Below are positions 12,100-14,019 of a stretch of 40,060 bases of DNA, piece by piece. Origin of the DNA: Escherichia phage IMM-002. A program made the translations under genes and the position numbers. The stretch's first letter is position 1. Each line of letters begins with the position of its first letter. Under the pieces are notes generated by a model. That model saw nothing but the letters and a program-made list of their open reading frames with translations, ran no database searches and was not told the DNA's origin. The stretch is from sequence record NC_048071.1; one strand, given 5' to 3'.

Positions 12100-13803
12100 A
12101 TGTCATATGAAGACCAAGAGCAGGACGATAGCGTCTTCCTCTACCACACCGAGTGTCCAGACTGCGGGTCTTCGGATGCCAATGGTGTTTACTCAGACGG
12201 GCATATGTACTGCTTTGCGTGTGACCCGTCAGTCGCTTGGAAGAAGGGCGATATGGAATTGACCGAAGGTTACACACCTTCAGGAGGCAAGAAGCAAGTG
12301 AGCAACCTGTTAACGTGGGGTGAGAACTCAGGACGTTATGTCCCACTCCCTGCTCGTGGACTATCGGCTGACATCTGCAAGAAGTACAGCTACTGGGTAG
12401 GCATGATGCAGGGTAAGATGGTCCAGATTGCGGACTACTACGACAGGTCCGGGACCAAGGTAGGACAGAAGGTCCGAGACGCTGACAAGAACTTCACGGC
12501 TATCGGTAGCGTCAAGAATGACTTACTGTTCGGCTCTCAGCTCTGGTCAGGCGGAAAGAAGATTGTCATCACCGAAGGCGAGATTGACTGTCTGTCAGTC
12601 GCTCAGGTGCAGGAAGGCAAGTACCCGGTTGTCTCTCTTCCGCTAGGCGCGAAGTCTGCGAAGAAAACACTGGCAGCTAACCTTGAGTACCTCGACCAGT
12701 TCGAAGAGATTATCCTGATGTTCGACATGGACGAGCCGGGGCGAGAGGCTGTAGAGCAAGGTGCTCCGGTCCTCCCTGCTGGTAAAGTCAAGGTCGCATT
12801 CATCAATGGGTATAAAGACGCCAACGCTGCACTTCAGGCCAAGGACTTCAGGGCGATTCAGGATGCAATCTGGAACGCTGTACCTTTCGTCCCGGCTGGG
12901 GTGGTTAGCGCCAAGTCTCTGAAGGACAGGACCCGCGAGGCAATGCTGAAGGCTGAGACTGAAGGTCTCCTCTTCTCGTCTTGCAAAACACTTAACGCGA
13001 TGACCCTCGGTGCGCGAGCTGGTGAGCTTATCATGGTGACTTCAGGGTCAGGCATGGGTAAGTCCACCTTCGTCCGTCAGCTCCTCTTAGAGTGGGGCAG
13101 AATCGGGAAGCGTGTGGGTATGGCGATGCTGGAGGAAGCAGTCGAAGAGACTGTTCAGGACCTTATGGGTCTGGACAATAACGTCAGGCTGCGTCAGTGT
13201 GCCGACCTGAAGGAAGCAATCCTGAAGGATGGACGGTTCGACGAATGGTATGACAAGCTGTTCAACGACGATAAGTTCCACCTATACGATTCATTCGCTG
13301 AGTCGGAAGAAGACACGCTGTTCGCTAAGCTGGCCTACATGGTTGACGGTCTGGACTGCGATGTTATTCTGCTGGACCACATCTCAATCGTGGTGTCTGG
13401 CATGGAAGATAACTCAGATGAGCGTAAGACCATCGACCGCATCATGACCCGTCTCAAGAAGTTTGCGAAGACGAAGGGTGTGGTCGTCGTGGTCATCTGC
13501 CACCTGAAGAACCCGGAGAAAGGTAAGTCACATGAAGAAGGTCGTCCAGTTAGTATCACTGACCTGCGTGGGTCTGGTGCTTTACGTCAGCTATCTGATA
13601 CCATCATTGCCTTGGAGAGAAATCAGCAAGGTGATACTCCTAACGTTGTTCAGCTCCGTTTGCTTAAGTGTCGCTTTACTGGCGATACAGGCATTGCGGG
13701 ACATCTTGAATACAACAAGCTCACTGGCTGGCTCGAACCGATTAGCGCACCTAGCGGAGGCGGAGAGGAAGATAGCAGCTCGTGGGAAAACCAAGACTTC
13801 TAA
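12100..13803 (+). CDS. 4: DNA primase/helicase
   Basis: 567 aa; Cys4 zinc ribbon (CPDCGSSD...CFACD), TOPRIM ([26 protein letters not shown]), Walker [52 protein letters not shown]. Confidence 0.97.
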
Positions 13804-13854
13804 ATGTCAATGCCCTGAGTGCGACTGGAAGTCACCATATGGAGGACACCATTA

Positions 13855-14019
13855 GTGTTTAAGAAACTTAAAGCCCGATACCACACGTTCATGTACAAGT
13901 GGTGGAACGAGGAGGCCAACTGTCTGTCCCGAATCCTTGGAGACCAGCGGTTTGACTCTAAGGCGTGGAAGCGAGCGAACCAGAAGTTCATGTATCACTT
14001 CCTGCGTATCGACTACTAA
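13855..14019 (+). CDS. Hypothetical small protein (gene 4.x position)
   Basis: GTG 13855 with GGAGGA 9 nt upstream (track ORF opens at GTG 13819); 54 aa. Confidence 0.35.
   Translation: MFKKLKARYHTFMYKWWNEEANCLSRILGDQRFDSKAWKRANQKFMYHFLRIDY

Follow-up and report, generated by a model that had tools for sequence, protein, structure and literature searches.

Gene 4.2 of T7-like phages, an open reading frame overprinted on the primase/helicase gene: comparative evidence from the locus of Escherichia phage IMM-002

Gene 4.2 of bacteriophage T7 is a small open reading frame (ORF) in the +1 frame of gene 4, the primase/helicase gene. In the T7 record (NC_001604) it occupies 12988..13326, and gene 4 ends at 13265; the two overlap by 278 nt and gene 4.2 runs on for a further 61 nt. 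Its 112-aa product (NP_041978) defines the Pfam family DUF5480 (PF17576), on which it scores 168 bits, and it belongs to PHROG 5140 (E=4.8e-46). The gene has reportedly been part of the T7 annotation since the original T7 sequence paper by Dunn and Studier in 1983, and it is left out of most modern annotations of T7-like phages. T3, K1F and KP32 carry orthologues, and gp4.2 stands at the corresponding place in the genome tables of T3-like and K1F-like Citrobacter phages (PMC4925675). Here we analyse its counterpart in Escherichia phage IMM-002, a T7-like Kayfunavirus: a 107-aa ORF at 13532..13855 on the + strand of sequence record NC_048071.1, whose 40,060 nt are referred to below as the window. 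The ORF and its family are already known and annotated. What is new here is modest: evidence that a long-ignored ORF is a selected gene, and that its C-terminal tails are modular.

Cloned T7 Gp4.2, expressed from pBAD, is toxic to E. coli, whose growth in minimal medium it inhibits; stringent-like alleles of RNA polymerase suppress this effect, and a two-hybrid assay saw no interaction of Gp4.2 with RelA, SpoT or RpoZ (bioRxiv 10.64898/2026.01.27.700999). Because 34 of the 53 T7 genes were toxic in the same screen (10.64898/2026.01.27.700999), this toxicity is of limited specificity. In a laboratory-evolved T7 line, a deletion took off the C-terminus of 4.2 (PMC8923235). This deletion and the loss of the ORF in natural lineages, described below, mark 4.2 as an accessory gene.

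Judged by position and sequence, the ORF in the window is an orthologue of T7 gene 4.2 and of K1F gp4.2. Its product is identical to the hypothetical protein HOU26_gp36 of Escherichia phage IMM-002 (NCBI), and the closest named relative is K1F gp4.2, which is also 107 aa long and 65% identical. Residues 1-93 match PHROG 5140 on profile positions 1-93 of 111 (E=3e-39). The features that unite the T7, T3, K1F and KP32 genes, namely the same host gene, the +1 frame, the position, an MKK or MRK start read from a gp4 His-Glu pair, and two hydrophobic helices, recur here: the ORF crosses the 3' end of the primase/helicase gene in the +1 frame and runs past its stop, its start is read from the His-Glu codons (CAT GAR) of the conserved K-G-K-x-H-E-E-G motif of gp4 in the codon alignment, and its first ~60 residues form two hydrophobic helices by hydropathy and in the AlphaFold2 (AF2) model (residues 2-25 and 28-85). 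The initial annotation had merely pointed to the small T7 ORFs 4.1 and 4.2 embedded in gene 4; the link turns out to be closer than was proposed, as the ORF is the exact positional orthologue of T7 4.2 and has PHROG 5140 in common with it. The two proteins are nevertheless only 34% identical, and their tails beyond gene 4 differ, with a Cys3-His tail in the window and ..DYEKFRWRVPF in T7. On DUF5480 the window ORF reaches 19 bits (E=0.0014) and so misses the gathering cut-off of 25 bits, although K1F gp4.2 carries PF17576 in a precomputed table; because of this score, the ORF is filed under the orthologue group and the PHROG rather than under the Pfam model.

The geometry described in the initial annotation, a 107-aa ORF overlapping about 270 nt of gene 4 and extending 52 nt beyond it, agrees with the ORF listing of the window, which gives an ATG start, a TAG stop at 13853-13855 and a frame of +1 relative to gene 4; the overlap is the last 272 nt of gene 4, followed by 52 nt past its end. 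The two hydrophobic helices (residues ~4-26 and 34-56), the Cys-containing tail and the AAAGG upstream of the ATG (13519-13523, directly preceded by GGAG at 13515-13518) that it reported are likewise found in the sequence. The ORF has no internal Met, and M1 is the sole candidate start. Residues T61, T62, N69, L71, L74 and E78 are nearly invariant across 4.2 orthologues.

The evidence that this frame is maintained by selection comes from comparison with relatives. We fetched 79 related loci and T7 and codon-aligned gene 4 from 78 usable sequences. Expected numbers were taken from a codon model in which the gp4 amino acids are kept and synonymous codons are drawn from the usage of gene 4 itself only. 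Over the first 477 codons, the +1 frame holds 22.3 stops per sequence where 21.3 are expected. Over the overlap, it holds 0.27 against an expectation of 2.5, a roughly 10-fold depletion confined to this part of the gene. There is no +1 stop at all in the overlap of 69 of the 78 relatives, an outcome with a probability of ~0.05 per sequence. The +2 frame has many stops throughout gene 4, and the alignment bin right before the ATG contains at least one +1-frame stop in 91% of the relatives. The start codon is kept in a similar manner. The His codon from which it is read is CAT in every lineage with an intact ORF, although CAT accounts for 24% of the His codons elsewhere in gene 4; CAC occurs in this place in sequences in which the ORF is broken or lacks its start. 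When the sequences are clustered at >40% synonymous-codon difference, they fall into 18 lineages, 15 of which are free of stops and 13 of which also keep CAT, and hence the ATG.

The composition of the overlap adds a second, directional kind of evidence. In the +1 frame, the wobble base of a gp4 codon becomes the middle base of a 4.2 codon, and T in that position gives Phe, Leu, Ile, Met or Val. At codons 478-537 of gene 4, T makes up 45-48% of the third positions, against 21-30% elsewhere in gene 4; from the amino acids and codon usage, 23-35% would be expected. The excess is specific for T rather than for A+T. It is limited to codons 480-539, two bins of 30 codons each that specify the helices, and all clades with the ORF show it; in the window, 29 of 60 wobble positions carry T where 13.8 are expected (P ~5e-6). 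The resulting hydrophobicity was measured as the mean Kyte-Doolittle hydropathy of alternative-frame residues 1-63 and compared with synonymous randomisations of each gp4, which give values of about 0 +/- 0.3. The observed values range from 0.66 to 1.53 over 17 lineage representatives and lie at 1.0-1.5 in 15 of them, with P <=0.0013 in 16 and 0.007 in the remaining one. For the window, the value is 1.18 against -0.23 after randomisation, and none of 3000 randomisations scored higher. The hydrophobic signature sets in right after the ATG, not before it. Lineages in which the frame is broken serve as natural controls (loci of the sample are given L numbers): three of them have no hydropathy excess (L055, P=0.43; the Vibrio VP4-like L058, P=0.93; L033, P=0.83), and some excess is left in two others, E. 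phage NC-A (L049, P=0.004) and the Dickeya phage L037 (P=0.06). On this compositional evidence, T is enriched by selection at the middle position of 4.2 codons, which yields hydrophobic residues.

On the 48 nt past the end of gene 4, gp4 places no constraint, so that ordinary tests of selection can be used. The tail module KCQCPxCDWxSPY..H of the window recurs in Kayfunavirus, in a second clade and in Przondovirus-like phages, and in the nine contigs that reach upstream it continues the 4.2 frame without a break; a tenth contig ends short. The tails of the window and of L025 show 16 differences, of which 10 are synonymous when read in the 4.2 frame; the ratio of nonsynonymous to synonymous differences (pN/pS) is 0.13 and the binomial P=7e-5. 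For this module, pN/pS is 0.07-0.53 in the 4.2 frame, whereas the other two frames give values >1 and contain stops. All differences are synonymous in the tail modules EPDWKLTTQCNCPWDRPCVCP (11 of 11) and GLWCDGYCCMHNPKNLYY (9 of 9). The substitution pattern thus indicates that the non-overlapping tail is under purifying selection in the 4.2 frame only, and therefore that the +1 frame is probably translated at least through the region of the gene 4 stop. Other phages carry other tails. Some are rich in Cys and His (CQCPxCDW..H, KCNGAYCWC, EWCSCEHCC, QCNCPWDRPCVCP, GCPCGHSDCDG, GLWCDGYCC) and some are acidic and aromatic (DIADYKNFMEDR, DYEKFRWRVPF), and the modules are always in the 4.2 frame (window 13805-13852; L011, L025, L065, L069, L079, L081 and others). 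As far as sequence comparison can tell, the 4.2 tail is an exchangeable module, common to several genera and under purifying selection.

The initial annotation had left the choice between a real overprinted gene and a chance ORF. The missing stops, the retained start codon, the wobble T and the purifying selection on the tail all support the former, and we consider it very probable that the ORF is a true gene, overprinted on gene 4 and orthologous to T7 gene 4.2. A number of results weigh against this conclusion and have to be set beside it. When synonymous codons were shuffled within each of the 50 + strand genes of the window, as a null for a single genome, 78% of the shuffles contained a sense-strand alternative-frame ATG ORF of at least 107 aa, with a mean of 1.9 such ORFs of at least 100 aa per genome; the site-specific probability of finding no +1 stop in the last 90 codons of gene 4 is 0.046. 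From one genome alone, the ORF is not beyond chance, and it becomes so only when relatives are compared. The combined probability over the lineages, ~2e-21 if they are independent and ~4e-12 if only six are counted, is too optimistic, as the lineages have common ancestry, though synonymous sites between them are near saturation. The ORF is lost or truncated in ~5 of the 18 lineages, including the Vibrio VP4-like phages, E. phage NC-A and, with a truncation, the Dickeya phages Katbat and Luksen, and it is therefore dispensable; the Dickeya phages retain a 54-aa version with both helices.

Simple measures of constraint and of initiation add to these objections. Synonymous constraint on gene 4 across relatives, which had been put forward as a check on the ORF, is found in one part and absent from another. 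Within the Kayfunavirus clade, to which the window belongs, synonymous diversity over the helix-coding part is not reduced (0.37 vs 0.26), and it is not lowered there in a second clade (clade B) either. Across clades, it falls to 0.31 over the last 29 codons of gene 4, from 0.52 elsewhere in the gene, and in the Przondovirus-like clade it is lowered from a point upstream of the ORF onwards; the directional constraints on stops and wobble T are strong. The constraint appears from these sequences to be compositional rather than positional, requiring enough T while residues turn over, and recombination may also contribute to the pattern. Synonymous alternatives yield Shine-Dalgarno-like duplexes as strong as the observed one (-6.4 kcal/mol), and the element is also present in lineages that lack the ORF. 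No 60-nt window of gene 4 is less structured than the start region (-4.1 kcal/mol against a mean of -13.9), and at the level of an 80-nt fold (z=+2.05) 200 of 200 shuffles folded at least as well; the structure is similarly low in lineages without the ORF. Since these lineages are similar, both features are imposed by the purine-rich codons of gp4. The open RNA structure and the Shine-Dalgarno-like element permit initiation and are no proof of it. Direct evidence of translation by ribosome profiling, mass spectrometry or tagging was not found in the searchable literature, and membrane insertion, topology and metal binding of the product are predictions.

The most obvious rival is that the ORF is a by-product of gene 4, its +1 frame open only through the amino acids and codon usage of gp4 and without a functional protein. 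The expectation of about one ORF of this length per genome (at least 107 aa in 78% of the shuffles) speaks for this account, as do initiation features dictated by gp4 codons, the unreduced synonymous diversity in the clade of the window and the dispensability of the ORF in several lineages. We nevertheless give it very little credence. A model conditioned on gp4 predicts 2.5 stops and a hydropathy of about 0, where 0.27 and 1.0-1.5 are seen. The wobble T excess sits over the two helices only and is missing where the ORF is broken. Thirteen of 18 lineages retain the rare CAT codon, and the tail, on which gp4 places no constraint, is under purifying selection in the 4.2 frame only. Selection on the tail and the missing +1 stops would also be compatible with programmed +1 frameshifting out of gene 4, which would produce a gp4 variant with another C-terminus and no independent 107-aa protein, and T7-like phages use frameshifting elsewhere, in gene 10B. 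However, a frameshift product would not account for an ATG that is kept through a rare synonymous codon, for the +1 stop just upstream of that ATG in 91% of the relatives, or for a hydrophobic signature whose onset coincides with the ATG. There would also be no obvious rationale for a helicase that has two membrane helices at its end and lacks its acidic tail. We regard frameshifting as highly improbable.

It could also be argued that the ORF is translated mainly as a device, delivering ribosomes to the downstream GTG start or modulating the gene 4 mRNA, and that the peptide itself is unimportant. In the window, the stop of 4.2 shares a base with the GTG that opens the next gene, and in other clades 4.2 ends a few nt from the Shine-Dalgarno sequence or ATG of the next gene, as such a device would have it. 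Pure coupling, however, needs neither a hydrophobic composition nor purifying selection at the amino-acid level on the tails, and the distance and arrangement with respect to the next gene vary by clade, with a promoter in between in T7. As the whole explanation, this is quite improbable; coupling may be an additional role of 4.2.

The coordinates of the features at the locus, including the predicted parts of the protein, are collected in the table.

Table. Features of the gene 4/gene 4.2 locus in the window (NC_048071.1); helices, basic segment and promoter are predictions
Feature	Coordinates	Strand	Basis
Gene 4, primase/helicase, overprinted host gene, 567 aa	12100..13803	+	Annotated as DNA primase/helicase in near-identical phages
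Gene 4.2 orthologue, ORF with stop codon	13532..13855	+	Identical protein HOU26_gp36; PHROG 5140; position and frame of T7 4.2
Initiation region: GGAGAAAGG, Shine-Dalgarno-like purine run, then ATG at 13532-13534	13515..13534	+	ATG read from gp4 His-Glu codons CAT GAA
+1-frame TGA that bounds the open frame on the 5' side	13505..13507	+	Read from gp4 codons CTG AAG; 8 codons before the ATG
Predicted transmembrane helix 1, residues ~4-26	13541..13609	+	Hydropathy; AF2 helix 2-25; wobble T excess
Predicted transmembrane helix 2, residues ~34-56	13631..13699	+	Hydropathy; AF2; wobble T excess
Basic helix, predicted cytoplasmic, residues 57-91	13700..13804	+	+1 reading of gp4 C-terminal linker and acidic-tail codons
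Cys/His-rich tail CQCPECDWKSPYGGHH, not overlapping gene 4	13805..13852	+	Module in 3 clades, in the 4.2 frame; pN/pS
Start of the downstream 54-aa gene: GGAGGA Shine-Dalgarno at 13841-13846, GTG at 13855-13857	13841..13857	+	Product matches PHROG 13039, 1-54 of 54
Promoter-like repeat (phage RNA polymerase) upstream of gene 4	12018..12045	+	Copy of the 28-nt repeat CTAAACTATCACTATAGG; resembles T7-type consensus

Taking the ORF as a genuine gene, our best reading of the protein models and the sequence is that it encodes a selected, non-essential protein of two helices that would reside in the inner membrane and carry an exchangeable cytoplasmic tail. Gene 4.2 would be carried on the middle-class transcript of gene 4, starting from the promoter-like repeat upstream of gene 4. 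The 28-nt repeat CTAAACTATCACTATAGG has 13 copies in the window, starting at 3390, 6916, 8610, 9698, 12018, 14006, 17998, 18027, 20817, 21773, 26229, 33519 and 39297, and from its T7-type consensus these are presumably promoters of the phage RNA polymerase. Gene 4 itself contains no copy, the next one being at 14006-14033; T7 differs in this respect, since its promoter phi4c is inside gene 4. Ribosomes would begin on their own at the internal AUG, whose surroundings are unstructured, rich in purines and equipped with a moderate Shine-Dalgarno-like element, all of it provided by gp4 codons, and would continue in the +1 frame past the end of gene 4 for 52 nt. Termination at the TAG may couple the translation of the next gene, as the two share one G in the junction TAGTG, and the GGAGGA Shine-Dalgarno sequence of that 54-aa gene is made up of codons 104-105 of 4.2. 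The ORF listing places the start of the 54-aa gene at an upstream GTG, 13819, which is probably not its true start (gene region 13841-14019).

The product would be a 107-aa protein with a hydrophobic hairpin in the inner membrane. The AF2 model has a mean pLDDT (predicted local distance difference test) of 74, and its second helix runs on to residue 85, within the basic segment. By the positive-inside rule, both ends would be cytoplasmic, because of the MKK N-terminus, the short loop PWREISK and the net charge of about +5 after helix 2. The basic helix that follows the hairpin would be the +1 reading of the linker and acidic C-terminal tail of gp4; the segment is basic because GAR and GAY codons of gp4 become ARG and AAG in the +1 frame. 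The short Cys3-His tail is possibly a zinc knuckle. A search of BFVD with the AF2 model, which is a generic helical hairpin, gave no significant match; the best holin had E=6.6. No stand-alone homologues of the family were identified: a hidden Markov model search against 1.84 billion representative proteins returned only 14 clusters, of which the genomic location was checked for one; this cluster, the weakest of the 14 hits, is the non-hydrophobic +1 frame of a distant gp4.

An accessory action at the host membrane seems most likely to us, with the conserved hairpin as the anchor and the exchangeable tail as the specific part. We speculate that gene 4.2 was born de novo by overprinting the helicase gene in a T7-like ancestor, that selection for U at the wobble position built the membrane anchor, that tail modules were then swapped between genera, and that the result is a modular, membrane-tethered effector of host takeover or counter-defence; this fuller scenario is tentative, and we think it on balance doubtful. 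A further possibility is that the basic segment, derived from the codons of the acidic tail of gp4, interacts with that same acidic C-terminal tail.

Small hydrophobic or embedded phage proteins of known function offer points of comparison. Gene E of phiX174, within gene D, is also a hydrophobic membrane protein in the +1 frame of an essential gene, and it too owes its hydrophobicity to U at the middle codon position, which is the wobble base of the host gene. E, however, is a lysis protein and MraY inhibitor with a single N-terminal helix and has no sequence relation to the window ORF, which has two helices and sits among DNA-metabolism genes in a phage that already has a lysis system. With two predicted helices in place of one N-terminal helix, the product does not fit a single-gene lysis protein of the E type. 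The embedded o-spanins (Rz1 in Rz of lambda, 18.7 in 18.5 of T7) resemble 4.2 in being encoded in the +1 frame of another gene, but proteins of the Rz1 type are lipoproteins with a lipobox. The window ORF has no [LVI][ASTVI][GAS]C motif; Cys12 stands in the context S-L-T-C and is Tyr in many orthologues, and on inspection the spanin reading was rejected. Class II holins, with two transmembrane domains, N-in/C-in topology and a charged C-terminus, are superficially similar: the ORF is small and is predicted to have two hydrophobic helices and a strongly basic C-terminal part, its topology being deduced from charge distribution only. The ORF lies inside gene 4 among DNA-metabolism genes, apparently outside the late lysis cassette, and has no dual-start motif. 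The Pfam model Phage_holin_2 gives E=0.29 and 11.8 bits against a cut-off of 32, and the fold search was non-significant, so that neither sequence nor fold places the ORF in this class. Pisces, a close relative, has an annotated amidase gene that precedes gene 4 by a few hundred nt.

Two further alternative-frame ORFs were noticed in the window. A second sense-strand ATG ORF of at least 100 aa, 18626..18931 (+), 101 aa, lies inside 18601-19002, a host-range gene resembling gene 7 (PHROG 2746). The ORF itself matches no PHROG and is consistent with the chance expectation of ~1.9 per genome. At the 5' end of gene 4, a 51-aa ORF in the +1 frame, 12107..12262 (+), recalls T7 4.1 and an ORF, likewise of 51 aa, that is listed in T3-like phages (PMC4925675). 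No PHROG matches it, and relatives differ widely in where it starts and how long it is; none of the 78 sequences has a +1-frame stop in codons 20-39 of gene 4.

The surroundings of the locus also deserve mention. The window begins and ends with a perfect 189-bp direct repeat (1-189 and 39872-40060), as expected for a complete T7-like genome. Upstream of gene 4, a 70-aa gene (11819-12031, +; PHROG 1950) starts with MIKFIEFLGRLV and resembles the N-terminus MFKLIE/KxLGRLV found in the gene next after gene 4, in T7 (4.3) as well as in Przondovirus-like loci; by this resemblance, one small-gene family seems to sit upstream of gene 4 in the window and downstream of it elsewhere. In L033 and L032, where 4.2 is broken, the region after gene 4 has an inserted ORF that from its sequence (..HKYGVFWMNGKNHRAHRAAFEL..) would be an HNH endonuclease. 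Insertions and module exchange seem to cluster in the interval between gene 4 and gene 5. In the record of Enterobacter phage vB_Ecl_MII_004 (L002, PQ039555.1), the annotation splits the primase/helicase into fragments with extra 'hypothetical proteins', which suggests that the record contains frameshift sequencing errors.

Taken together, we argue from the comparison of these sequences that gene 4.2 is a real and widespread, though dispensable, membrane-protein gene. Genome annotation in the Autographiviridae should include it, and synonymous recoding or refactoring of gene 4 would unknowingly change it. The comparative evidence can guide the reading of the stringent-response-linked toxicity of T7 Gp4.2 (10.64898/2026.01.27.700999). 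Gene 4.2 would also provide a clean example of the birth of a membrane protein by overprinting.

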